Positions 1 to 28,057 of a stretch of 64,000 nucleotides of DNA are shown here, piece after piece. Under the pieces are notes generated by a model that saw only the letters and a program-made list of their open reading frames with translations, searched no databases and was not told the origin of the DNA. This DNA comes from Candidatus Uhrbacteria bacterium (lineage in GTDB: Bacteria > Patescibacteriota > Patescibacteriia > UBA9934): positions 15,581 through 79,580 of the forward strand of contig JABJOE010000005.1 in the NCBI GenBank assembly GCA_018664485.1. The letters are read 5' to 3'. The translations under genes were made by a program, and so were the position numbers. Positions within the stretch are counted from its first letter, which is position 1. Each line of letters starts with the position of its first letter.

Positions 1-40
1 GGGTAAGCGAAACGATTGGGTGGCAAAATACAAGAATATT

Positions 41-116
41 GCCGTTGTAGCTCAGTTGGTAGAGCGCATCCATGGTAAGGATGAGGTCTCGGGTTCAAAT
101 CCCGACAACGGCTCCA
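41..116 (+). tRNA. tRNA-Thr (anticodon GGT)
   Basis: Manual cloverleaf: acceptor GCCGTTG/CAACGGC, D arm GCTC-AGTTGGTA-GAGC, anticodon stem CATCC/GGATG with loop ATGGTAA (U33, GGT, A37), T arm TCGGG-TTCAAAT-CCCGA, CCA encoded. Confidence 0.85.
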
Positions 117-282
117 TAGATTTTTAATACTTGGTCTTTTATCCCGATACTGTGTTGTGACTACGGTCCTCGACGTCGTACAGTGAGTACGACTTACTAC
201 TGTCCTCGTCACGCCTTGTATCAGAATAAAATACCAGCGTCTTAAAAACCGAAATCAGTTACGCAGGAGAAAAACATAAAAT

Positions 283-367
283 GGGTCGGTACCGAAGCGG
301 TCAAACGGGGCAGGCTGTAAACCTGCTGGCTATGCCTTCGCTGGTTCGAGTCCAGCCCGGCCCACCA
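283..367 (+). tRNA. tRNA-Tyr (anticodon GTA), type II with long variable arm
   Basis: Acceptor GGGTCGG/CCGGCCC (one G-U), anticodon stem GCAGG/CCTGC with loop CTGTAAA, long variable arm, T arm GCTGG-TTCGAGT-CCAGC, CCA encoded; 85 nt as is typical for bacterial tRNA-Tyr. Confidence 0.8.
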
Positions 368-660
368 CAAAAATCCTGAACTAGGCTATTTTCAACTCAC
401 GGGTCCCGACAGACTTCCTCAATGTACGTATAAGTACATCTCGTCGTCTACCACCCGTTCATTGAAACTATCACTAGTTCAGGGTTTTTTTTGTTTACTA
501 GATTCTTCTACCTTCCCGCTAAGCTGGACCGCTTGTTCATTGAAGCTATCACAGATTCAGAGTGTTTTTTGTTTAAGATCTTTCAAGATAATAACTTCTA
601 TTCAAGACGTTATTTTTTTATCCCATAGAAACTTGATTTGAGTCGTTTGTTAAGCTATTC

Positions 661-689
661 TTGACAAAAGCGATACTGCGTGGTAATTT
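661..689 (+). promoter_or_regulatory. sigma70-like promoter, TTGACAAAAG extended -35, 17-nt spacer, TAATTT -10
   Basis: TTGACA at 661-666, spacer 17 nt, TAATTT 684-689; same 10-mer TTGACAAAAG recurs at many intergenic sites in the window. Confidence 0.5.
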
Positions 690-843
690 ATTGCGTTCTT
701 TCGGAAGAATTTTGTCTTTAGAACATTTCAGATTGTAAGTCTGTGATGTTTTGGGGATAATCCTCAATGATACTTTCAGGGTTCGTAAATCGAACTACTG
801 ACTCACACGATCATTCTGATCGACACCCACCTACGAGGCCACT

Positions 844-1782
844 ATGGACACTCGCATGATTAACAGTCTGACGTACGACGAAACCAAGTCGCTTGCAGCC
901 TACGACGACGAGAATCCGAATGCGCGGCAGCGCGATCGAAGAGCTCATATCATTAGCATTCGTGCCATGGCACGGAAAGCCCGTAGGAAAAGGGGCTTGA
1001 GGTTACCGGCTGTGCGTCGACTTACTCCTCGACAAGGTCGTGATATGTGGCTCAGCGTTCCGACGCAAGACCATACATCCGATCCAGATCTCTTCGAGCA
1101 TATGGAGGGCAGGGCATACTGTGGACCGCGGATTGCTCACGCAATGAGCTACCAGTACCCAGAATCCGACTTCGACAGAACCAACGGCCTAGTGTCTACT
1201 CGCACACGTTGTGACCACGATGGCGCCGTTCCTGGTCGGCGGATGGCCGATGAGGAGATTGATTATGATAGGCTCTTGCTGGATGCTCAGTCACGTGCTT
1301 GCGTGGCGTTGAACAATGGCGAGTGTGAGTACAACCGGTCTCATGATGTGAGTTTGTATGTCGGCGGTGAGCATGTTCGGGTAACAAGCTGGCGAAGCCG
1401 AGATAACGGCGCACTGAACATCTTTGCATACAGCAAGTGGCTGGATGAGTTGGTGATCGACCGTGTGGCGACTAGAGCAATGGCGGACGATGTATTCGTT
1501 CCGAGGCACGTACTCCTTGCGAGTCATACCAGTTTTCTTGGAGCCACAAATTTCGATACGTGGTGGCTGAGCAGCATGGCAAAAAGGCATGGGTACAAAG
1601 ATCCTGATGGATACGCGGGTCTATATGTTGAAGAGTTAATGCCCGAGGTGATGTACGCACGCCCAGATCCTCGAAATTGGCGAAAGGGCCGTTCGTCCGC
1701 TCGCTTGAAACGAGATGATGAAGTTGAGGGTGACGTGTCTGCGACGCTCACCCAAGAGGCTACCGAGTGTGCTCCTCTGTGA
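844..1782 (+). CDS. hypothetical protein (GC-rich segment, Arg-rich N-terminus)
   Basis: 312-aa ORF in ORF track; markedly higher GC than flanks; no motif recognised; overlapped by several antisense ORFs typical of GC-rich DNA. Confidence 0.45.
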   Translation: MDTRMINSLTYDETKSLAAYDDENPNARQRDRRAHIISIRAMARKARRKRGLRLPAVRRLTPRQGRDMWLSVPTQDHTSDPDLFEHMEGRAYCGPRIAHAMSYQYPESDFDRTNGLVSTRTRCDHDGAVPGRRMADEEIDYDRLLLDAQSRACVALNNGECEYNRSHDVSLYVGGEHVRVTSWRSRDNGALNIFAYSKWLDELVIDRVATRAMADDVFVPRHVLLASHTSFLGATNFDTWWLSSMAKRHGYKDPDGYAGLYVEELMPEVMYARPDPRNWRKGRSSARLKRDDEVEGDVSATLTQEATECAPL

Positions 1783-1892
1783 GCTCGTGAAGCACTACCA
1801 CTCCGCGCGCGTCGTTCCATACTCGGGACGACGCGCTCTGTGCATAGAGCTCGATTATTCGTACTTTGCGCGCAGATTAAGTAAAATAACTG

Positions 1893-1921
1893 TTGACGAA
1901 AGTGACAGCCTGGAGCATACT
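1893..1921 (+). promoter_or_regulatory. promoter TTGACGAAAG-N-CATACT
   Basis: TTGACG 1893-1898, 17-nt spacer, CATACT 1916-1921, ~85 nt upstream of RRM gene. Confidence 0.35.
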
Positions 1922-2008
1922 TTTACTGCTCTCTTGTTAGATGGGAACCTATCGTTGGTTCCTTGTTCAAACCGAGAGAAGTCTTATTCATAGTTCGACA
2001 CTCTTGTT

Positions 2009-2260
2009 ATGAACAACAAGCTATTTGTCGGCAGTTTGCCATGGGCAGTTGATGACCAGTCTTTGAACGACCTCTTCGCTACATACGGAGAAGTTCTCTC
2101 AGCTCGTGTTGTTACTGACCGTGACTCAGGACGTTCACGTGGATTCGGTTTTGTCGAGTTCGCTGATGACGCTTCTGCACAGGCTGCCATTGATGCGATG
2201 GACGGTGCTGACGTCGAAGGACGCAACATCACAGTTTCCGTTGCAAAGCCAAAGGAATAA
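2009..2260 (+). CDS. RRM-type RNA-binding protein (RNP-1 RGFGFVEF, RNP-2 LFVGSL)
   Basis: 83-aa ORF with canonical RNP-2 (LFVGSL) and RNP-1 (RGFGFVEF) motifs of bacterial glycine-poor/RRM RNA-binding proteins. Confidence 0.85.
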   Translation: MNNKLFVGSLPWAVDDQSLNDLFATYGEVLSARVVTDRDSGRSRGFGFVEFADDASAQAAIDAMDGADVEGRNITVSVAKPKE

Positions 2261-2276
2261 ATTTGGTAAACAAAAC

Positions 2277-2299
2277 GAGGCCGCAAGGTCTCTTTTTGT
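2277..2299 (+). terminator. rho-independent terminator GAGGCC-GCAA-GGTCTC + T5
   Basis: 6-bp GC stem with GNRA loop followed by TTTTTGT immediately after RRM gene stop. Confidence 0.7.
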
Positions 2300-2541
2300 A
2301 ATCTAGAATATATTATTGGGCCAGTAATTCACTCCTGCGGTGAATTGCTTAAAACTTCGGCCATGGTATCTTGTTAAGAATTTCCTGGATTGCAGGCGTA
2401 GAGTCCATATTGGCGTTTTGTTTATGGGAGGGAGGGGGTTAGAATGAGGGAATAATAGCTTATTTATAAGTAGTTAACTATTGCCAATAATGGTCAAATC
2501 GGCTACTATCATGTCGCATTGAGTGATGTGTATTATCTTAT

Positions 2542-2632
2542 AGGGGAGTAGCTCAGCTGGTAGTCCAGCCCCTCATGAGAGGCTGGATTCAGTAGAGGTC
2601 TCCACCCAGCCCTTCTAGAAGAGCTGGGTCCA
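2542..2632 (+). pseudogene. truncated 5' copy of tRNA-Trp (acceptor 5' strand, D arm, anticodon stem-loop) with two hairpin insertions; no T arm or 3' acceptor
   Basis: 2542-2563 AGGGGAGTAGCTCAGCTGGTAG matches tRNA-Trp 2901-2922 (21/22); GTAGAGGTCTCCA conserved; insert 1 TCCAGCC-N10-GGCTGGA (2564-2587) in D-loop; insert 2 CCCAGC-N12-GCTGGG (2605-2628) splits anticodon loop with TCCA/TCCAA flanking duplication; nothing downstream can form T arm. Confidence 0.6.
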
Positions 2633-2645
2633 AGACCACGTTTAC

Positions 2646-2894
2646 ATGTTCTATGTCTATTTGTTAAAAAGTGATCGGGGTACAATGTATATAGGGTATA
2701 CATCGGACCTTGTGCGAAGGGTTGCTGAACATAAAAATAGATCAGTATTTTTTACTAAAAGACATAAACGATGGGACCTGGTCTATTACGAGGCTTACCT
2801 CACGAAGGCGGCTGCACAAGATCGGGAAAGAAAGTTGAAACAATATGGATCGGCTTACCATGGCCTGTTAAGGCGAGTAGACGAAAATAGATAG
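2646..2894 (+). CDS. GIY-YIG nuclease family protein (YhbQ/COG2827-like, 82 aa)
   Basis: FYVYLLKS...YIGYTSDLVRRVAEH...LVYYE pattern of stand-alone GIY-YIG domain proteins. Confidence 0.8.
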   Translation: MFYVYLLKSDRGTMYIGYTSDLVRRVAEHKNRSVFFTKRHKRWDLVYYEAYLTKAAAQDRERKLKQYGSAYHGLLRRVDENR

Positions 2895-2900
2895 TATTAT

Positions 2901-2976
2901 AGGGGAGTAGCTCAGTTGGTAGAGTAGAGGTCTCCAAAACCTTTGGTCGCAGGTTCAAGTCCTGTCTCCCCTGCCA
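2901..2976 (+). tRNA. tRNA-Trp (anticodon CCA)
   Basis: Acceptor AGGGGAG/CTCCCCT perfect, D arm GCTC-AGTTGGTA-GAGT, anticodon stem GAGGT/ACCTT loop CTCCAAA (U33, CCA, A37), T arm GCAGG-TTCAAGT-CCTGT, discriminator G, CCA encoded; 76 nt. Confidence 0.8.
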
Positions 2977-2998
2977 CGTCGGTCGCGACCGACGTGGC
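2973..2998. repeat. 26-nt perfect palindrome GCCACGTCGGTCGCGACCGACGTGGC overlapping tRNA-Trp 3' end, flanked by direct repeat CCTGCCACGT
   Basis: Sequence equals its own reverse complement; CCTGCCACGT at 2970-2979 and 2998-3007. Confidence 0.7.
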
Positions 2999-3144
2999 CT
3001 GCCACGTAAAGCACGTAGGTCACACGAAACATCGTTCTTAAACGGTGTGGTATGCCACGCGTTTAGCGTTACGGGTCACAAAGTCGCGCCAACATGACAG
3101 CAAGAGAGCGCCGCAAGGCGTTCTTTTGTTATAATGAGATCATT

Positions 3145-3405
3145 ATGTGGTATTTCTACGTCTTACAATCCCAGAAGGAACCTGATTATTTTTACAAAGG
3201 TTCCACTGGCAATTTAGAGAACAGACTTATAAAACACAATGCTGGTGATGTCATCTCTACGAAGCCGAGGCGGCCCTGGAAGCTTGTTTATTATGAAGCA
3301 TATATTTCTGAAAAGACGGCTCGTCTTCGTGAGAGGTCTGTAAAGAGAAGTGGGTCGATATCCGTGCCATTACTACGTCGTATTAAGGCGAGTCTTGAGG
3401 AATAG
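3145..3405 (+). CDS. GIY-YIG nuclease family protein, second paralog (start taken at MWYFYVLQS)
   Basis: YFYVLQS...YKGSTGNLENRLIKHN...KLVYYEAY; same family as 2646..2894; ORF track ORF 3094..3405 trimmed to internal Met preceding GIY motif. Confidence 0.7.
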   Translation: MWYFYVLQSQKEPDYFYKGSTGNLENRLIKHNAGDVISTKPRRPWKLVYYEAYISEKTARLRERSVKRSGSISVPLLRRIKASLEE

Positions 3406-3422
3406 CAGTTTTTTATTTCACG

Positions 3423-3439
3423 GACAGGACTTGAACCTG
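3423..3439 (-). repeat. inverted 17-nt copy of tRNA-Trp T-arm (CAGGTTCAAGTCCTGTC) without a complete tRNA
   Basis: Reverse complement of 3423-3439 is identical to 2952-2968 of tRNA-Trp; flanks cannot be folded into acceptor/D/anticodon arms. Confidence 0.55.
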
Positions 3440-3510
3440 GGTGTGGTACGAACTTCTCAAGTATCTTGCGTTTTATGGTAAACTTTTATTCTAATTAGAT
3501 ATATGCCCTT

Positions 3511-4266
3511 ATGTTTGGACGAAAAAAGAAGTTACTATCATGTGATGGGTGCGGGTATCCTCTAGAGAGGATGGGGCATGGGGAGAATTGCCCGGTGTTG
3601 CTTCGTGAGGATCCTAACGCTCGAAAACAAACCGTTGATAATTGGATTGATAGTATAAAAAATGGGTATATAGGCCATGTAATACCTAGTGATCGATATG
3701 AGGGCATCATCTCAACAGAAGATATTTTATATAGGGCGGGTGGAAAAATTGAAGTACCATTGGAGGCATTTGAGGAGGCGGCAAGAACAAGTAAGTTGGA
3801 TGACTATATCGCTCAATTGCCTGAAGCGCTAGAAAAGCTGGGTCTTGATGTTGAAGTGTATATGAAGGCCGCAGTTTTAGCTCATCTAGATGTTATTGAA
3901 GAGGGTGAGATTACTGTCATTGTAATGAAAGAGCTGATGAATGCGTATCCAGCAGTGGTTCGGTTTTACGATGAACCGAAAATCCAAAAATACCTAAAAA
4001 ATGACTTGGACTTGGATCTTTTTAAACGGCGTGATCAGCAGCTTACTTCTGAGCATTTAAATAGAATTAGAAATATTTTCGAAACGTTTCCTATAACTTC
4101 AGAGCTACGTGCGGAGGCGGTGAGCGAAGCGATGAATTATCTTAAAGATTTAGGTAGGTATGATGATGGTGAGTATAATGAAGAGAATTGGTTTTTCGCT
4201 AATGTTTCAAAAGAGTCGCTCATGCAGTTGTTAGATGATATTCTAGAGGGTGAGGGCACAGAGTAG
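3511..4266 (+). CDS. hypothetical protein
   Basis: 251-aa ORF, low-GC, N-terminal CxxC-containing region, no recognised family. Confidence 0.5.
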   Translation: MFGRKKKLLSCDGCGYPLERMGHGENCPVLLREDPNARKQTVDNWIDSIKNGYIGHVIPSDRYEGIISTEDILYRAGGKIEVPLEAFEEAARTSKLDDYIAQLPEALEKLGLDVEVYMKAAVLAHLDVIEEGEITVIVMKELMNAYPAVVRFYDEPKIQKYLKNDLDLDLFKRRDQQLTSEHLNRIRNIFETFPITSELRAEAVSEAMNYLKDLGRYDDGEYNEENWFFANVSKESLMQLLDDILEGEGTE

Positions 4267-4305
4267 GATTTGTACGTACGATCCTACTAAAAATGGTTTT
4301 CCGAT

Positions 4306-4337
4306 AATCTTCACGAGGAATCGTGGAGATTTTTTGT
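4306..4337 (+). terminator. rho-independent terminator ATCTTCACG-AGGAAT-CGTGGAGAT + T6 (copy 1 of a 32-nt repeated terminator)
   Basis: 9-bp stem (one G-U) + TTTTTTGTT; near-identical copy at 4897-4928. Confidence 0.7.
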
Positions 4338-4377
4338 TTGTGATTATGCTTTAAATTGTACGTCTTTAGCCCAATAG

Positions 4378-4406
4378 GTTGACAAAAGCCTGTTTTTTTG
4401 CTATAT
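4378..4406 (+). promoter_or_regulatory. promoter TTGACAAAAG-N13-TATATT
   Basis: TTGACA 4378-4383, 17-nt spacer, TATATT 4401-4406; AGGAAA RBS-like before ATG 4445. Confidence 0.55.
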
Positions 4407-4444
4407 TATTTTGTTCTTTCAACCATCAAACCCAAGTAGGAAAC

Positions 4445-4762
4445 ATGGAAACTGTAGCAGTCGTGCATAGTAATGATGTGGGTGTCTTCGTCAGGGATGG
4501 CCTTTACATTTCGAGTGTCGAAGGCCCGCGAGACCAGTCACGCACTGTCACTTTTCCAGATGGTACCCGTACCATGCGTGCTACTACCCATCAGCAAGAA
4601 AATTGTACTCTGTGGGTGACCACAGGTGGTCGGGTGTACTGTCAGGGCTATCGCAGACCCGGCAATCCAACCCGCAGGCTCAGGTCCTACAATCAAGACA
4701 CTCTCCATGATCTGTTCGGTTCCCTCATCCTCCCACGTGATTTCTGGGGGCTCCGTACTTGA
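4445..4762 (+). CDS. hypothetical protein (GC-rich cassette; start at METVAVVH)
   Basis: ORF 4379..4762 trimmed to ATG 4445 downstream of promoter/RBS; by-eye GC clearly above the flanks (not computed); no known motif. Confidence 0.45.
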   Translation: METVAVVHSNDVGVFVRDGLYISSVEGPRDQSRTVTFPDGTRTMRATTHQQENCTLWVTTGGRVYCQGYRRPGNPTRRLRSYNQDTLHDLFGSLILPRDFWGLRT

Positions 4763-4896
4763 TTCGCACTAAGCCGCACCATATAGAGATCGCTTCGGCG
4801 CCTCCTCTCCGGTGCGGTCTTCTATTTGAAATATTTATGGGTAGTGTAAAGTTCGAGCGGTAGTTATAGATTATTCAGATGGCGAGAGCTAAAATC

Positions 4897-4928
4897 ATCT
4901 TCACGAGAAATCGTGGAGATTTTTTGTT
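4897..4928 (+). terminator. rho-independent terminator (copy 2 of repeated terminator)
   Basis: ATCTTCACG-AGAAAT-CGTGGAGAT + TTTTTGTT; one substitution in loop relative to copy 1. Confidence 0.7.
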
Positions 4929-4941
4929 ATACTGCCCAACG

Positions 4942-5632
4942 TATGAAACCTTATCAAGAATACCTAGAAGGGACTGAGGAGATATTGAAAGCTAGTAGAG
5001 CTGAAACAGATAGGTACGAGACTGAGGTGCTTGGACGTAATTTTATAGTTCATCCGAATGTATTCTCGCCAAAGTATTTCAAGGATACGGAGCCGTTTGC
5101 AAAACATCTGCCAATAACAGAAGGACAGACAATGCTTGAGATAGGTCCTGGTACAGGTGCTGTATCTATTACGGCGGTCCATAGGGGCGCAAAGCATGTA
5201 ACAGCAATCGACATCAATTCATCTGCTGTTGCTAACGTGCGAGAGAACATCCAGCTTCACAATATGCAAGACCAGATCGATGTCCGCTTTGGCGATGTAT
5301 ATAGTGCTCTTCAGCCTAATGAAAAGTTCGACGTGATTTTTTGGAATACTCCATTCGGTCTCATCCCAGATAACGCCGAGATTACAGATTTACAGAGGTC
5401 AGTTTATGATCCTGGCTATATGGCTACGGAGCGGTTTATTTTGGACGCAAAGCAGCACCTTAATCCAGGCGGAGTCGTTTATATAGGGTTTAGTTCAACT
5501 TTGGGTAAGTTGGACTTAATTGAGTCCTTTGCGGAAAGGTCAGGCTTTACTTTGAAAAAGATATTTGAAATAGATTCAACGGAGAAGCATCAGGTGAAGT
5601 TTGAGATTTTCAAAGCTGAACTGAGAACATAA
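4942..5632 (+). CDS. class I SAM-dependent methyltransferase (HemK/RsmC-like N-methyltransferase; motif I LEIGPGTG, motif IV NTPF)
   Basis: GxGxG SAM-binding motif and D-V-I-F-W-N-T-P-F (NPPF/NPPY-type) motif; track ORF start 4913 lies inside terminator hairpin so start moved to ATG 4942 (MKPYQEY). Confidence 0.7.
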
Positions 5633-5642
5633 TAATTTAGCT

Positions 5643-6017
5643 ATGAAACTTCAAGGAATAACTGTAAAAGAGATTGAGCTGACACCAGCTATAGAAGAAT
5701 ACGTTCTTAAGCGTGTTGCTAAATTGTCGAAAATTTGTCAAAAAGAGAAATCTGCAACTATACGTGTGGAACTTGGTGAGCGACCCTCGCAGCACAGGGG
5801 TGTTGGAGATAGCTTTTACGCTGAATTGGACGTTACTATCAAGGATCAACATTTTAACGTCAAGAAACATAACCCAAATATATATAGGGCGATCGAGAAG
5901 GCTAGGGTAGATATGCACCAAAAGATAATCAAATGGAAGAAAAAGGATTTGAGCACTCAGCGAAAAAACGGTGCAGAAATTAAGAAATTCCTTAGGTCTG
6001 CTGATTACAATGAATAG
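5643..6017 (+). CDS. hpf: ribosome hibernation promoting factor (HPF/RaiA/YfiA family), copy 1
   Basis: MKLQGITVKEIELTPAIEEYVLKRVAKL... matches short-form HPF N-terminal pattern (I.GKN.E.T.A...YV..K..KL). Confidence 0.6.
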   Translation: MKLQGITVKEIELTPAIEEYVLKRVAKLSKICQKEKSATIRVELGERPSQHRGVGDSFYAELDVTIKDQHFNVKKHNPNIYRAIEKARVDMHQKIIKWKKKDLSTQRKNGAEIKKFLRSADYNE

Positions 6018-6085
6018 ATGAGATCTACTTTGCCGCTCATCGGGTAGCCGGTATACTGTAATCATTAAATAAGTAATCGTATTTT

Positions 6086-6340
6086 ATGAAAGGTTCACCT
6101 TGTAAAGCTTGCGCGATCTGTACGTGGGTTCTTGTAGTGGCTGGAGTTCATCTTGGTCTTATGGGGGTCTTCGAGTGGGATCTGCTCGGGACGGTCGCCG
6201 GAGATTCAGCTTCATTCCTACGCGTTATGTACATCATAATCGGTGTTGCTGCAGTTGGAATTGCTGCAAAGTCCTTGGGAATGTGTAAGAATTGTAAAAT
6301 GGGTTGCGGTGGTGACGCGTGCAAGCACGGAAAGAAGTAG
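6086..6340 (+). CDS. DUF378 (YuzA-like) small membrane protein
   Basis: Two TM helices with LVVAGVHLGLMGVFEWDLLG and IIIGVAAVGIA signature resembling DUF378. Confidence 0.6.
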   Translation: MKGSPCKACAICTWVLVVAGVHLGLMGVFEWDLLGTVAGDSASFLRVMYIIIGVAAVGIAAKSLGMCKNCKMGCGGDACKHGKK

Positions 6341-25179: not shown

Positions 25180-27285
25180 ATGCGAGATTTTGTTTTATCC
25201 CCACAGAGTTCATCCAAGTTAGAGATTGATTATGAGAACGATCTCAATGATCAGCAGTTGGATGTTGTAAAAAATGGAGAAGGAAGAACGCTGGTTTTAG
25301 CCGGTGCCGGTTCTGGAAAAACGCGAACGATTACGTATCGTGTGGCCTGGATGTTAGAGCATGGCGTTGCACCTGAGAATATTCTTCTTTTAACGTTTAC
25401 CAACAAAGCGGCAAAGGAAATGATTAGTCGTTTGAGTGGATTATTGGGTCCTCGAGCACAGGGTGTTTGGGCTGGCACATTTCACTCGGTAGCAAACCGA
25501 TTGTTGCGTCGTTATGCCGACAAGCTTGGCTACGATTCACGATTTTCAATATTGGACCAAGATGATGCTCGCGAACTAGTTCGTTTATGTATCAAAGATC
25601 TGAAGATCGATACAAAAAACCGACGCTTTCCGTCACCGTCTGTTGTGCGTGGAATTATTTCATATCAACAAAACAAACAGGATTCTATAGCTGATGTTTT
25701 AGAAGACAGATACAATAAATTTTCTCCATTGCGTGGTGAGATAGATTCTGTTGCGGATTTATACAGGACATTGAAGATGACTCAGAATGTAATGGATTTC
25801 GATGATCTTCTTTTGAATTTCCGAAAACTTTTATCACAGGATGAAGAAGTTGGTAAGCAGTTGTCGTCGATGTTCCAATATGTTCTTGTAGATGAGTTTC
25901 AAGATACAAATAAAGTTCAATCACAAATTGTCGACTTGATTAGCCAGACACATAAGAATTTATTAGTTGTTGGTGATGATGCTCAGAGTATTTATTCTTT
26001 CCGAGCCGCAGAGATTGAAAACATTCTCGCATTTCCAAAACGTTACCCTGGCGCTAAAACTTTTCGTCTTACAAAAAATTATCGGTCCACGCCAGAGATT
26101 TTGGAAGTTGCAAACCAGGTTATTGCAAGGAACACGAATCAGTTTAAAAAAGAATTAGAAGCAGTTGGGCGGTCTGGTGCGCGTCCGTCACTTGTGCCAG
26201 CTGCAAACACCGGGCAGGAAGCTCAATTTATTGCCGATCAAGTTCTCCAGTTACGTGATCAGGGTGTTGAGTTGCGGGAGATGGCTGTTTTATTCCGCGC
26301 ATCGTTTCATTCGCAAGCTTTGGAGTTTGAGTTGATGAAGCGTGACATTCCGTATGAGTATCGGGGTGGTTTGAAGTTTTTTGAACGTGCGCATATTAAA
26401 GATGCTGTTGCGCATTTGCGGTTGATGAATAATGTTCGCGACATCATGGCTTGGATGCGTGCATTGCGTTTGCATCCTGGTATCGGCTTGGTAACGGCGC
26501 AGAAGATTGCGACATCTGCATCTGCTTGTCAGAATATTGAAGATGTATTGATGTTGCCTTTAAAGACTGGGAAACGCGCTGCTGCTGGTTGGCAAGGTTT
26601 CTTGCGGGTATTGCGTGAAATGTTAGAAGCTGGTGGGACGCCGTCTGAATTTATCCGAGGATTTGCCGGTAGTGAAGATTATCAGGATTATCTAGAGAAT
26701 GAATATCCAAACGCTTCAGAACGTAAAGAAGACTTGGAACAATTTGCAACATTCGCTGAGCAGACGGATGACATTGGTGAGTTTTTGGATTACGTTTCGC
26801 TTACCGCAGAGTATGGTGCAGAGCGGGGTGGAAAAGAAAAGGTCAATGAAGAACGAATGGTTCTTTCAACCGTTCACCAGTCAAAGGGGTTGGAGTGGGA
26901 TGCGGTGTTCGTTATGCATTTAAATGAAGGGTCGTTCCCGCATGGCCGCGCATTTTCAGAGAAAGGTGGTGTGCAAGAAGAGCGTAGGCTGTTTTATGTT
27001 GCTGCAACGCGAGCGCGTAAACATTTGTTTTTGACGTATCCACTTACCGCCGGTTACGACACGCTCGAGATGAAGCAGCCGTCTACATTTTTGGGAGAGA
27101 TTTCAAGTCATGCAACGGAAGAAGTTCGACTTCAGCGGTCAGGTTATCGTAGGCAACCTATGCGCCGTCCGACATCTTCATTTAGCGCATACGATGATGG
27201 GCCGACTATTGTATTAGATAAAGATGGGGAACGTGTATCAAAACCGTCACCAAGTTCTTTTTTGCGCGGAGTTGACGAGTTGTAG
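25180..27285 (+). CDS. uvrD: UvrD/PcrA/Rep-family ATP-dependent DNA helicase
   Basis: LAGAGSGKTRTITYRVAWML Walker A, VDEFQDTN motif II, VVGDDAQSIYSFRAA, QSKGLEWD, YVAATRAR. Confidence 0.9.
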   Translation: MRDFVLSPQSSSKLEIDYENDLNDQQLDVVKNGEGRTLVLAGAGSGKTRTITYRVAWMLEHGVAPENILLLTFTNKAAKEMISRLSGLLGPRAQGVWAGTFHSVANRLLRRYADKLGYDSRFSILDQDDARELVRLCIKDLKIDTKNRRFPSPSVVRGIISYQQNKQDSIADVLEDRYNKFSPLRGEIDSVADLYRTLKMTQNVMDFDDLLLNFRKLLSQDEEVGKQLSSMFQYVLVDEFQDTNKVQSQIVDLISQTHKNLLVVGDDAQSIYSFRAAEIENILAFPKRYPGAKTFRLTKNYRSTPEILEVANQVIARNTNQFKKELEAVGRSGARPSLVPAANTGQEAQFIADQVLQLRDQGVELREMAVLFRASFHSQALEFELMKRDIPYEYRGGLKFFERAHIKDAVAHLRLMNNVRDIMAWMRALRLHPGIGLVTAQKIATSASACQNIEDVLMLPLKTGKRAAAGWQGFLRVLREMLEAGGTPSEFIRGFAGSEDYQDYLENEYPNASERKEDLEQFATFAEQTDDIGEFLDYVSLTAEYGAERGGKEKVNEERMVLSTVHQSKGLEWDAVFVMHLNEGSFPHGRAFSEKGGVQEERRLFYVAATRARKHLFLTYPLTAGYDTLEMKQPSTFLGEISSHATEEVRLQRSGYRRQPMRRPTSSFSAYDDGPTIVLDKDGERVSKPSPSSFLRGVDEL

Positions 27286-27400
27286 TGAGGTTTACTCTTT
27301 GGTTACAGGTTTTAAGTATTAGGTTTTAGTGCAAATACCCAGGTTCTAGTACCTGGCACTATAAAAAAGAAGCAGTCTGCATATTATACGATTACAATTA

Positions 27401-27434
27401 GTAAACATTTGTGGCGATCGCCACAAATGTTTAC
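27401..27434. promoter_or_regulatory. 34-bp perfect palindrome GTAAACATTTGTGGCGATCGCCACAAATGTTTAC (candidate operator) 40 bp upstream of 27476 gene
   Basis: exact reverse-complement symmetry around GATC; no T-run so not a terminator. Confidence 0.5.
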
Positions 27435-27475
27435 TAAGGATGCTATTAAAAGATTCGGGTAGATGATATAAATTT

Positions 27476-28057
27476 ATGAAATATATAAAAAACAGATCAA
27501 ATTTTTCAAAACCAAAACCATCAAAAAAACCGCGAGTGGTTTTATTTGTTGGAATTATTTTAGTAGTTGTAGTTTTTGTTTTTATTTTTTCCGGTGGTGA
27601 TGATGAAGTTGCGCAAGATTTAGTTGTACAAGATGAAAATGTCGCAGAAGAAGTTGAAGATGAGGTTGCGCGTGAAGTAGAAATTGTCGATGCTGCATTG
27701 TGGACGCAAGAAGTTGTACTCGTTGACGTTGAGGGAGCTTCCGGATCTGGTATTGCTCGTCGAGGTGTTTCGGGCGACTTGTTTACTCATGTTGTTGTCG
27801 CAACATTGCCCGCAATTGAAACAGAGTTTTATTTTTATGAAGGATGGTTGGTAAAACCTGGTGTAGTCGAATTCTTCTCAACTGGCGAGATGTTCGCGCG
27901 CGAAGATGGTAAGTGGGGATTGGTATGGGAGGTGAATGTTGACTCGGCTTCCGATGATTTATTTGACTACAGTAAAGTCGTTATAACTCGCGAGCCAAGA
28001 GACGATGACGAAGCGCCGTCACCAGATCATGTTATAGAGGGACAGTTTTCAGAATAG
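27476..28057 (+). CDS. membrane-anchored protein with anti-sigma-K (RskA) C-terminal-like domain
   Basis: N-terminal TM, C-terminal FYFYEGWLVKPG...VVITREP...APSPDHVIEG resembles RskA extracytoplasmic domain pattern. Confidence 0.45.
   Translation: MKYIKNRSNFSKPKPSKKPRVVLFVGIILVVVVFVFIFSGGDDEVAQDLVVQDENVAEEVEDEVAREVEIVDAALWTQEVVLVDVEGASGSGIARRGVSGDLFTHVVVATLPAIETEFYFYEGWLVKPGVVEFFSTGEMFAREDGKWGLVWEVNVDSASDDLFDYSKVVITREPRDDDEAPSPDHVIEGQFSE

Follow-up and report, generated by a model that had tools for sequence, protein, structure and literature searches.

The locus described here raises the question of how a single functional tRNA-Trp gene came to stand between two small nuclease genes, downstream of a broken copy of itself and directly against a perfect palindrome. 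It lies in a stretch of 64,000 nucleotides (nt) from a Candidatus Uhrbacteria bacterium of the Candidate Phyla Radiation (CPR; contig JABJOE010000005.1), and the whole of this stretch is referred to as the window. The region contains one tRNA-Trp (CCA), at positions 2901-2976 of the + strand, which was identified both by ARAGORN and by Rfam (RF00005; 68.7 bits, full model) and is the functional copy. On either side of it, and on the same strand, are two open reading frames (ORFs) of the GIY-YIG family, GIY1 (2646-2894; 82 aa) and GIY2 (3145-3405; 86 aa), which share 41% identity and are the sole GIY-YIG genes within the 64 kb. Three GC-rich palindromes, belonging to two types designated class A and class B, are also present. 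We consider it probable, with moderate confidence, that the locus is the tRNA-Trp form of a widespread, minimal selfish system, in which a GIY-YIG protein of ~80-90 aa is combined with cognate GC-rich hairpin cassettes in stable-RNA genes. The window holds two diverged systems of this kind, GIY1 with class A in the truncated tRNA copy and GIY2 with class B at the 3' end of the intact tRNA. An initial annotation, made from the letters of the window alone, had described this set of features, and all of them exist at, or within a few bases of, the positions that it assigned (ARAGORN, Rfam, a repeat finder, and PF01541).

The truncated copy is located upstream of GIY1 on the + strand. Its first segment (2542-2563) corresponds to nt 1-22 of the tRNA, i.e., the 5' strand of the acceptor, the D stem, and the D loop as far as GGTAG; the repeat finder aligned 2538-2563 with 2897-2922 at 25 of 26 identical positions. 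The D loop of this copy contains hp1, a class A palindrome of 24 nt (2564-2587; halves TCCAGCCCCTCA and TGAGAGGCTGGA) with one mismatch (92% complementary). The insert amounts to 27 nt when TTC (2588-2590) is included and is without a clean duplication, and its DNA hairpin has a predicted energy of -6.5 kcal/mol (z -2.7). The tRNA sequence resumes at 2591-2604 with nt 23-36 (AGTAGAGGTCTCCA), which comprise the 5' strand of the anticodon stem and the loop through the CCA anticodon, and which are identical to 2923-2936 in 14/14 positions (repeat finder). The second class A palindrome of 24 nt, hp2 (2605-2628; halves CCCAGCCCTTCT and AGAAGAGCTGGG; one mismatch), occupies the anticodon loop, and after it come a duplicated TCCA and AGACC (2629-2637), which are what is left of the anticodon arm on its 3' side, reading TCCAAGACC where the intact gene has TCCAAAACC. 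The target duplication of hp2 is thus TCCA, at 2601-2604 and 2629-2632; the duplication reported for this loop in the initial annotation is present, but as TCCA/TCCA rather than TCCA/TCCAA. Similarity to the tRNA stops at 2637, 8 nt before the start codon of GIY1, and the copy has neither a T arm nor a 3' acceptor strand. No tRNA or intron model matched 2542-2645 (ARAGORN; Rfam at E<=10), no group I intron matched positions 1-6000 of the window at E<=10, and a search for a complete second tRNA, which had been put forward as a check on the insertion reading, found none (ARAGORN; Rfam on both strands, E<=10).

The third palindrome is found at the 3' end of the intact gene. The perfect 26-nt palindrome noted there previously (2973-2998) is real, but it is best read as a perfect 24-nt class B palindrome (2974-2997; halves CCACGTCGGTCG and CGACCGACGTGG) which stands between the discriminator G73 and the CCA of tRNA-Trp, together with a 4-nt target duplication, CCTG, at 2970-2973 and 2998-3001. 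A direct repeat, CCTGCCACGT, occurs at 2970 and 2998 with a spacing of 28; its second copy (2998-3007, + strand) consists of the tRNA 3' end and the first trailer bases, so that the original junction has been displaced by the insert. The DNA hairpin has a predicted energy of -11.6 kcal/mol (z -3.7). Both this palindrome and hp2 are true insertions with miniature target-site duplications, as had been suggested for hp2.

When the 251-aa ORF downstream was used as a probe, five more assemblies of the same organism were retrieved. Over ~2 kb the compared assemblies are 100% identical to the window save for one 28-nt indel. The palindrome-bearing allele (the window and L155) reads CCTG-CCACGTCGGTCGCGACCGACGTGG-CCTG, and the empty-site allele, without the 28-nt palindrome insert (L157, L158, and L159), reads CCCCTG^CCACGT, in full CCCCTG^CCACGTAAAG. 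The insert consists of a 24-nt palindrome, with TCG and CGA meeting at its centre, plus a 4-nt duplication, and the same format is found at the anticodon loop. The indel may represent a gain or a precise loss by way of the 10-nt repeats, and loss is at least as likely, since the palindrome occupies the corresponding place in the tRNA of related species. An origin from P nucleotides or a fold-back was also considered, as the class B palindrome starts with the same 6 nt as its right flank; it was rejected because the class A hairpins bear no such relation to their flanks and the sequence of the palindrome is conserved across species.

The association of class B with GIY2 was examined in nine GIY2 lineages (the window, L160, L163, L165, L167, L169, L170, and L171, plus duplicates). 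Homologues of GIY2 number >120 at 60-78% identity and are distributed over Uhrbacteria, Peribacteria, Gracilibacteria, and other CPR groups; judged from these sequences, the gene looks vertically conserved across CPR classes. GIY2 is positioned 13-170 nt downstream of a tRNA gene in 9/9 cases (Trp in four, Ser in three, Asp in one), and at every one of the nine loci a class B palindrome (CCACGTCG..CGACGTGG) stands between the discriminator base and CCA. The consensus after the discriminator is CCACG[T/G]C[G/A]NTCG followed by CGAN[C/T]G[A/C]CGTGG. After the palindrome, again in 9/9, the final 4-5 nt of the host tRNA are repeated together with CCA, and the duplications match this tRNA, being CCTG for Trp, CTCCG for Ser, and CCCG for Asp. 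Changes in the palindrome between species are symmetric, with both sides altered in 3 of 11 pairs, 99% of cells paired, and no wobble intermediates. Class B is thus found with the GIY2 clade at 9/9 loci, and class A hairpins or arms accompany GIY1-type genes; the two pairings coexist in the window and also in L160. The latter, a different species of Uhrbacteria, has an architecture like that of the window, including the disrupted 5' tRNA copy and a GIY1 gene, and carries the class B palindrome in three copies, while the related Uhrbacteria locus L163 has GIY2 and lacks GIY1. Palindrome and trailer are repeated after a second tRNA-Ser in L169, and in L170 the order is palindrome, GIY2, palindrome. 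Two extra blocks composed of a degenerate tRNA 3' end, a class B palindrome, and a trailer were observed in L160 (3131-3192 and 3993-4053), along with one more palindrome at about 4176. In the Peribacteraceae locus L165 (2358-2440), the class B right arm plus tRNA 3' end (CGACGTGGCCTGCCACCCTCCTTGG) occurs three times in tandem after tRNA-Trp.

Altogether ~60 related loci were compared. The genome loci were selected with a narrow alignment of GIY1, one genome per species, the broader alignment being too diverse, and comprise 25 loci encoding proteins which contain RERKLKQY. In five of the 25 (L001, L002, L004, L015, and L024), a tRNA-Trp on the same strand follows the end of the GIY gene at a distance of 16-53 nt. 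Eight further tRNA-Trp loci, among the matches listed, came from a hairpin-anchored scan of metagenomes with YCCMGCCNNTCGCGANNGGCKGGR, which yielded at least 120 loci (L042, L052, L104, L106, L109, L137, L139, and a relative of L106), and one more came from the GIY2 look-up. At these loci the intact gene adjoins partial copies that carry hairpins, and in the genome loci the tRNA-Trp fragments are broken after the anticodon-loop CTCCA by 24-nt GC-rich palindromes and continue with TCCAAAACC, which is the junction seen at 2601-2637 of the window. This junction of hp2 (CTCCA-hairpin-TCCAAAACC) recurs in L001, L002 (twice), L004, and L024, and the junction at hp1 (GGTAG-hairpin) is found also in L052, L104, and L056. 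The window-type architecture at tRNA-Trp is therefore present in at least 12 independent lineages. The suggestion that a tRNA gene has repeatedly been colonised by GIY-YIG cassettes is borne out, and the advised search for other tRNA genes flanked by GIY-YIG genes was positive at the five genome loci and at others.

Several of these loci differ in the state of their copies. In L015 the upstream copy is reduced to 11 nt and fused to a truncated GIY gene. Within one lineage two states were found: in L109 the disruption affects the upstream copy and leaves the downstream one intact, and the reverse holds in L106, which has a remnant GIY gene. The tRNA fragments of L024 and L001 are not identical to the intact tRNA beside them, that of L024 resembling the tRNA of L002, and thus some of the DNA arrived from elsewhere. 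In the scan loci, hairpins join tRNA loops in the forms GGTAG-hairpin-TCCAAAACC and CTCCAA-hairpin-CGATTCC. Recombination between hairpins in the D, anticodon, and T loops, with loss of the interval, would be expected to give such forms, and the window retains a D-loop and anticodon-loop pair in the undeleted state. Within 722 kb of hairpin-anchored loci, among the matches listed, eight of ten GIY genes lie within ~200 nt of a hairpin. An exact 4-nt flanking repeat (TTGA, TCAA, TCCA, or TTCC) was counted at 6 of 82 solo hairpins in the same set, as against 0.3 expected, and this signal vanishes when the boundaries are shifted. In viral contigs, a search with GGTCTCCA-N24-TCCAARACC, used as a negative control, gave nothing beyond chance matches, which were non-palindromic and accompanied by neither a tRNA nor a GIY gene; no class B palindrome was found there and only two weak, partial relatives of GIY1. 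From this near-absence we conclude that the GIY/hairpin family is not phage-borne.

Some side observations concern the same hairpins. In L056 (3250-3800, minus strand), an intact tRNA-Ile(TAT) lies between two pseudo-copies full of GC-rich hairpins, which interrupt the D loop as well as the stretch separating it from the anticodon loop, with no GIY gene nearby; thus the phenomenon extends beyond tRNA-Trp. Class A solo hairpins with TTGA/TCAA duplications abut -35-like TTGACA boxes in L040 (796), L086 (566), L065 (545), and L090 (229), which suggests either a target preference or an effect on promoters. In L107, a distant GIY-YIG gene (P0104-like, of proteobacterial type) is placed between 23-nt direct repeats, GCTTCGATGAACTCAGCATGACA (2947-2970 and 3372-3395), and has a class A-like hairpin and a T run upstream.

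The GIY1 relatives are also found well away from tRNA genes. Their sites include several in 23S rRNA, 16S rRNA, RNase P RNA, and tRNA-Trp genes and one in a protein-coding operon, and 18 of the 25 genome loci are in or at stable-RNA genes. Three further GIY1 homologues with GC-rich inverted arms first drew attention to enclosed ORFs, and a systematic scan revealed that perfect inverted arms of 9-21 nt enclose ~22 GIY ORFs. The arm-bounded units are 251-320 bp long, with the outer ends CCCAGC, CCCCGC, or TCCAGC. By Rfam, they lie inside 23S rRNA genes at nine loci (L005, L006, L007 (twice), L010, L012, L013, L019, L020, and L023), inside 16S rRNA genes at three (L008, L014, and L174), and inside RNase P RNA genes at three (L003, L022, and L173). 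Over their first 10 nt the arms of the units are the same as those of the solo palindromes (CCCAGCCCTT, CCCCGCCCTT), and the arms of hp2 resemble the terminal arms of the full-length units in L014 and L017. The 24-nt palindromes therefore correspond to arms minus the gene, and two traits link them to miniature inverted-repeat elements, namely arms like those of a full-length element and a target-site duplication; of the three copies in the 64 kb one is polymorphic, which slippage deletion may account for.

Three loci of this group deserve separate mention. A 109-nt arm-bounded insert without an ORF (CCCAGCCGGTGGTC..GACCACCAGCTGGG) is found in a pseudo-tRNA of L160 (1929-2037) with a TGA duplication and is an intermediate form. 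The P3 stem-loop of the RNase P RNA in L173 (1270-1310) carries cassette-arm sequence (CCCCCACCACTTTTC..GAAAAGTGGTGGGGG), and an ORF-bearing unit with the same arms sits in another helix of that RNA; it may be that a solo element has taken the place of the native P3 helix. In L005, a tRNA-Asp call (4695-4770; ARAGORN; Rfam, 54.8 bits) falls within the 23S rRNA match at 2604-6243 and seems to be a tRNA-like sequence inside an rRNA insertion.

Both proteins of the window are single-domain members of the GIY-YIG family. The clade of GIY1 (+ strand) is the one that occupies rRNA, RNase P RNA, and tRNA-Trp genes, and GIY2 (+ strand) falls into the conserved CPR clade downstream of tRNA genes with the class B palindrome. 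Matches to PF01541 were obtained for GIY1 (E value 1.4e-13; 51.3 bits) and GIY2 (E value 1.6e-12; 48.0 bits) against a cut-off of 22.6, and no NCBIfam family model matched either protein. The start of GIY2 was placed at 3145, and not at 3094 as in the longer ORF, because its homologues begin MWYFY. The catalytic domain spans the whole of each protein, with no residues beyond it. Among 31 sequences, including both window proteins, Y5, G17, R25, H29, E49, R60, and E61 are invariant and Y3 and Y15 nearly so; by analogy, these residues would have catalytic roles. The AlphaFold model of GIY1 (pLDDT 85.8) is a single domain with the order E-E-H-E-H-H of the GIY-YIG fold, in which helices pack a three-stranded sheet, and its top Foldseek matches are the UPF0213 protein 1zg2, Slx1 (7cq3; TM 0.68), and the N-terminal domain of UvrC (1yd5). 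A profile of the clade matched 1zg2 among solved structures at an E value of 9e-13, with the UPF0213 proteins BH0048 and EF2693 among the best, and GIY2 alone matched UPF0213-type structures weakly (E values 0.01-0.03). The same profile collected 6,650 representative clusters at 50% identity (E<=1e-10). Identity between the window and L160 is 77% for GIY2 and 56% for GIY1. In a neighbour-joining tree, calculated without support values, GIY2 formed one group and the GIY1 genes linked to tRNA-Trp were not obviously one group.

How such an arrangement could arise may be proposed as follows. In most GIY1 relatives the ORF occupies the loop of a long hairpin, the unit measuring ~250-320 bp within a stable-RNA gene, where an extended helix would be tolerated or trimmed off. 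Since a tRNA would not tolerate the insert, the cassette would persist there between duplicated tRNA segments, and selection would keep one copy of the tRNA whole as the remaining copies bear hairpins and decay. Gene-less 24-nt palindromes would insert at tRNA loops or at the 3' end with a target duplication of 4-5 bp. By analogy with the Ssn nucleases discussed below, each protein would recognise its own hairpin in single-stranded DNA (ssDNA) and nick a few bases 5' of it, and at a perfect palindrome this would give nicks on both strands at the palindrome edges. These nicks would promote insertion and excision of hairpins and local recombination, which in turn would generate duplications of tRNA segments and deletions between hairpins. 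The comparison itself shows the anatomy, its recurrence across lineages, the pairing of each hairpin class with one nuclease clade, the target duplications, and the polymorphism. It is on the Ssn analogy that we infer the specificity of each nuclease for its own palindrome in ssDNA, as well as mobility and local duplications driven by the nuclease. As a more speculative extension, which we put forward only tentatively, hairpin and GIY-YIG gene might constitute an autonomous transposable element that depends on the nuclease alone, with no transposase or integrase: both strands would be cut at the edges of the extruded palindrome, and the palindrome, with or without the ORF, would be pasted where a folded stable-RNA gene exposes a single-stranded loop or end, creating a duplication of 4-5 bp. 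Were this so, the 24-nt palindromes would be among the smallest mobile DNA units known.

A number of results weigh against a selfish GIY-YIG/hairpin system. The degree to which GIY2 is conserved points to a role in the host, and not to a purely selfish one. Most loci of the hairpin scan, among the matches listed, have no nearby GIY gene or tRNA, and many of them look like terminators composed of an A tract, a hairpin, and a T tract. There is no sign of proliferation of the palindromes within the 64 kb. Neither the window nor 159 loci yielded a donor copy of the class B palindrome, and slippage deletion between the 10-nt repeats could explain the 28-nt polymorphism. In the arm scan, neither GIY1 and GIY2 nor the GIY ORFs of the other tRNA loci proved to be enclosed by inverted arms; the layout at tRNA loci, in which the ORF stands beside complete palindromes, is not derivable from a full-length unit in simple steps, and the full-length units show no clear target duplication. 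Finally, the SRM motif published for Ssn (HGTCWYN(0-2)YYVSBRHN(0-5)WNVSBRGN(0-2)RNCYNB) gave 0 matches in the window and 20 GIY loci.

These points bring up an explanation in which nothing is mobile, the genes being UPF0213-like and co-transcribed with tRNAs, the hairpins acting in RNA as terminators or as processing or stabilising structures, and the tRNA fragments being decaying tandem duplications. The GIY2 clade is indeed well conserved and syntenic with tRNAs across CPR classes, A- and T-tract flanks give many such hairpins the look of terminators, the compensatory changes suit a structural role, and slippage can yield a 28-nt indel. We nevertheless judge it unlikely, as the target duplications track the host tRNA and 4-nt repeats are enriched at solo hairpins; hairpins within the D, anticodon, and T loops of tRNA copies destroy function, and the pseudo-copies are otherwise identical to the intact gene, so that the lesion is the hairpin and not drift. 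Moreover, the same arms bound ~300-bp ORF units in rRNA and RNase P RNA genes of distant phyla, and the absence of G-T intermediates fits a need for folding of both DNA strands. The initial annotation had instead considered homing, and classical free-standing GIY-YIG homing endonucleases, similar to T4 Seg, could have cut naive tRNA-Trp genes, spread through repair of the double-strand breaks, and left the repeats as scars. Such genes lie beside or between tRNA-Trp sequences in many unrelated lineages, the partial copies in L024 and L001 resemble tRNA-Trp of other taxa, implying horizontal transfer, and the related Uhrbacteria locus L163 is without GIY1. Set against this, the proteins are bare catalytic domains of 82-86 aa with no DNA-binding module, their close relatives occupy many sites (23S rRNA, 16S rRNA, and RNase P RNA genes) with no single shared target, and GIY2 is seemingly inherited vertically. 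An intact tRNA beside the gene would itself be a target, and break repair from a homologous donor creates neither target duplications nor palindromes. Homing in its classical form is for these reasons rather improbable and was not upheld.

Partial tRNA duplications flanking inserts are typical of genomic islands and prophages, for which the 3' ends of tRNAs are common integration sites, and the fragments might on that account be attachment-site scars of an integrase-type island or prophage at tRNA-Trp. No integrase or other island gene is present at the locus, however; the inserted DNA amounts to 250-360 bp, the duplicated part is the 5' portion with loop hairpins rather than a 3' core, and the family is essentially absent from viral contigs, all of which makes this origin very improbable. 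Least probable of all, to the point of being barely tenable, is that the tRNA-Trp is split, permuted, or intron-containing and joined at the level of RNA, or that the hairpins are small introns, although the initial annotation had raised a split or processed tRNA. The 5' copy does end in the anticodon arm, the usual position of splits and introns, and palindromes after a 5' half and before a 3' half, a layout present in L002, could pair in trans. Yet no tRNA or intron model matched 2542-2645 or the minus strand at 3423, and no group I intron was found; the truncated copy has no T arm or 3' acceptor strand, the inverted fragment is of 17 nt without an acceptor strand, a complementary half is lacking, and an intact tRNA-Trp is adjacent. 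The archaeal splicing endonuclease is not known to occur in bacteria. The selfish GIY-YIG/hairpin system thus remains the reading that we prefer.

Other features of the window were assessed in relation to the locus. The inverted T-arm copy (3423-3439, minus strand; repeat finder) reproduces 17 nt of tRNA-Trp exactly (100%); it is isolated, with similarity confined to these 17 nt, and its fold is ordinary (z -0.8). No tRNA-like match was obtained on the minus strand near 3423 by ARAGORN or by Rfam, even at E<=10, and L001 has an 11-nt counterpart of this fragment. Between the tRNA and GIY2, a terminator-like GNRA hairpin with a T run (AGAGCGCCGCAAGGCGTTCTTTT), followed by TATAAT, was read from the sequence at 3105-3127 (+ strand); the consensus scan made no call there, and L160 keeps the block ACATGACAGCAA, hairpin, TTTTGTTATA. 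No GC-rich palindromes of the class A or class B type were found elsewhere in the 64 kb, the three described being the total, and no other copy of the 3' palindrome was found in the 64 kb with <=3 mismatches allowed (0 expected). As these palindrome types are confined to the locus within 64 kb, its features exceed chance. Rfam detected no rRNA gene in the window, so the window copies do not extend an rRNA helix.

At 27398-27437, between the ORFs at 25180-27285 and 27476-28057, there is a perfect palindrome of 40 nt, AT-rich around a GC core (TTAGTAAACATTTGTGGCGATCGCCACAAATGTTTACTAA), the sequence of which is unrelated to class A and class B. The 251-aa ORF adjoining the locus (3511-4266) is an orphan without a Pfam domain, and its homologues were found only in the same organism among 5.8 billion proteins; the 312-aa ORF at 844-1782 also has no Pfam match. 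GC skew is positive across the window (1-64000), with a cumulative value that climbs steadily, and most long ORFs are on the + strand, which is consistent with a single replichore.

The locus and its relatives link three things hitherto treated separately, i.e., Ssn-like nuclease/hairpin pairs, the inserts with GIY-YIG genes in the rRNA genes of CPR bacteria, and odd fragments of tRNA genes. Single-domain GIY-YIG proteins form a very large family whose function was unknown before the Ssn work of 2025, and the present locus offers concrete junctions, with a 24-nt palindrome and its defined duplication, a predicted cut between G73 and C74, and populations carrying both alleles. If the more speculative reading as a nuclease-only transposable element is true, the segregating insertion would be the first direct handle on the spread of Ssn-type hairpin repeats. 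The family also bears on annotation: where a CPR genome has tRNA fragments or palindromes close to genes for tRNA, rRNA, or RNase P RNA, these are likely to be its footprints and not assembly errors or split genes.

Comparison with known systems begins with UPF0213/YhbQ and Slx1, which provide the best sequence and fold matches among solved structures and have no known link to hairpin repeats or stable-RNA genes. A literature search on GIY-YIG with tRNA-Trp, on COG2827/YhbQ, and on palindromes in Patescibacteria found nothing relevant. The homing endonucleases I-TevI and T4 Seg share with GIY1 and GIY2 the catalytic domain, a selfish character, and the association with conserved genes, and T4 SegB acts in a tRNA gene cluster; the proteins described here differ by having no DNA-binding domain and many sites, and by their palindromes and duplications in place of clean junctions. 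With REP/RAYT (the REPtron) and IS200/IS605 they have in common short extragenic palindromes that flank one dedicated enzyme gene, the recognition of hairpins in ssDNA (proposed for the present proteins), and miniature non-autonomous derivatives. The enzyme in those systems is an HUH tyrosine transposase, whereas here it is a GIY-YIG nuclease, and IS200/IS605 makes no target duplications, unlike the present elements. As regards IS200/IS605, hp1 does follow GTAG, but GTAG is plain tRNA D-loop sequence.

A closer relationship exists to the inserts of CPR rRNA genes. GIY-YIG ORFs have been reported there in inserts which are not introns and which were judged not to have spread by homing (Tsurumaki et al. 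2024, PMC11270868). The GIY1 relatives are such inserts in 16S and 23S rRNA genes, with 12 homologous loci, and, like these inserts and the intervening sequences processed by RNase III, they are not group I or II introns, are placed at the tops or bases of stem-loops, and occupy scattered sites. The window copies differ by being at a tRNA gene and not within an rRNA gene. The words 'inverted repeat', 'palindrom', 'hairpin', and 'tRNA' are all absent from PMC11270868, and thus the bounding arms, the solo palindromes, and the tRNA sites are not reported in that paper.

The closest analogue is Ssn. In the work of Chenal et al. 2025 (PMC11893778), Ssn proteins are single-domain GIY-YIG proteins of ~94 aa (cd10448), each of which binds hairpin repeats (NTS/SRM) on the flanks of its own gene; they cleave ssDNA only, at a position a few bases 5' of the hairpin, and have a modulating effect on natural transformation. 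The authors suspected an IS-like gene architecture or origin and left the origin of the repeats open (PMC11893778); REPs tagged with CGTC had been reported in 2013 as being without a dedicated transposase (PMC3733652). The systems resemble each other in the single domain of ~90 aa, in the GC-rich hairpin repeats beside the gene itself, sometimes on both sides (L170), and in the presence of a distinct hairpin variant for each protein clade. Class B also contains CGTC, and L167 has CGTCATTC, as in NTS. As we read PMC11893778, SsnA cuts ~3 nt 5' of its CGTC tag. The CGTC of class B is preceded by exactly 3 nt, CCA, and an equivalent cut would fall at the edge of the palindrome, which on each strand is the insertion junction. 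This analogue, the match of the palindromes to the arms of the ~300-bp units, and the existence of palindrome classes specific to nuclease clades are what the initial annotation missed. The differences are equally clear. Whereas the Ssn hairpins are oriented and imperfect, those described here form perfect 24-nt palindromes or split arms with an ORF between them; they lie in or at stable-RNA genes, in a context of which PMC11893778 makes no mention as regards either tRNA or Patescibacteria; their copy number is very low, compared with hundreds in Neisseria; and target duplications and an indel polymorphism are seen here.

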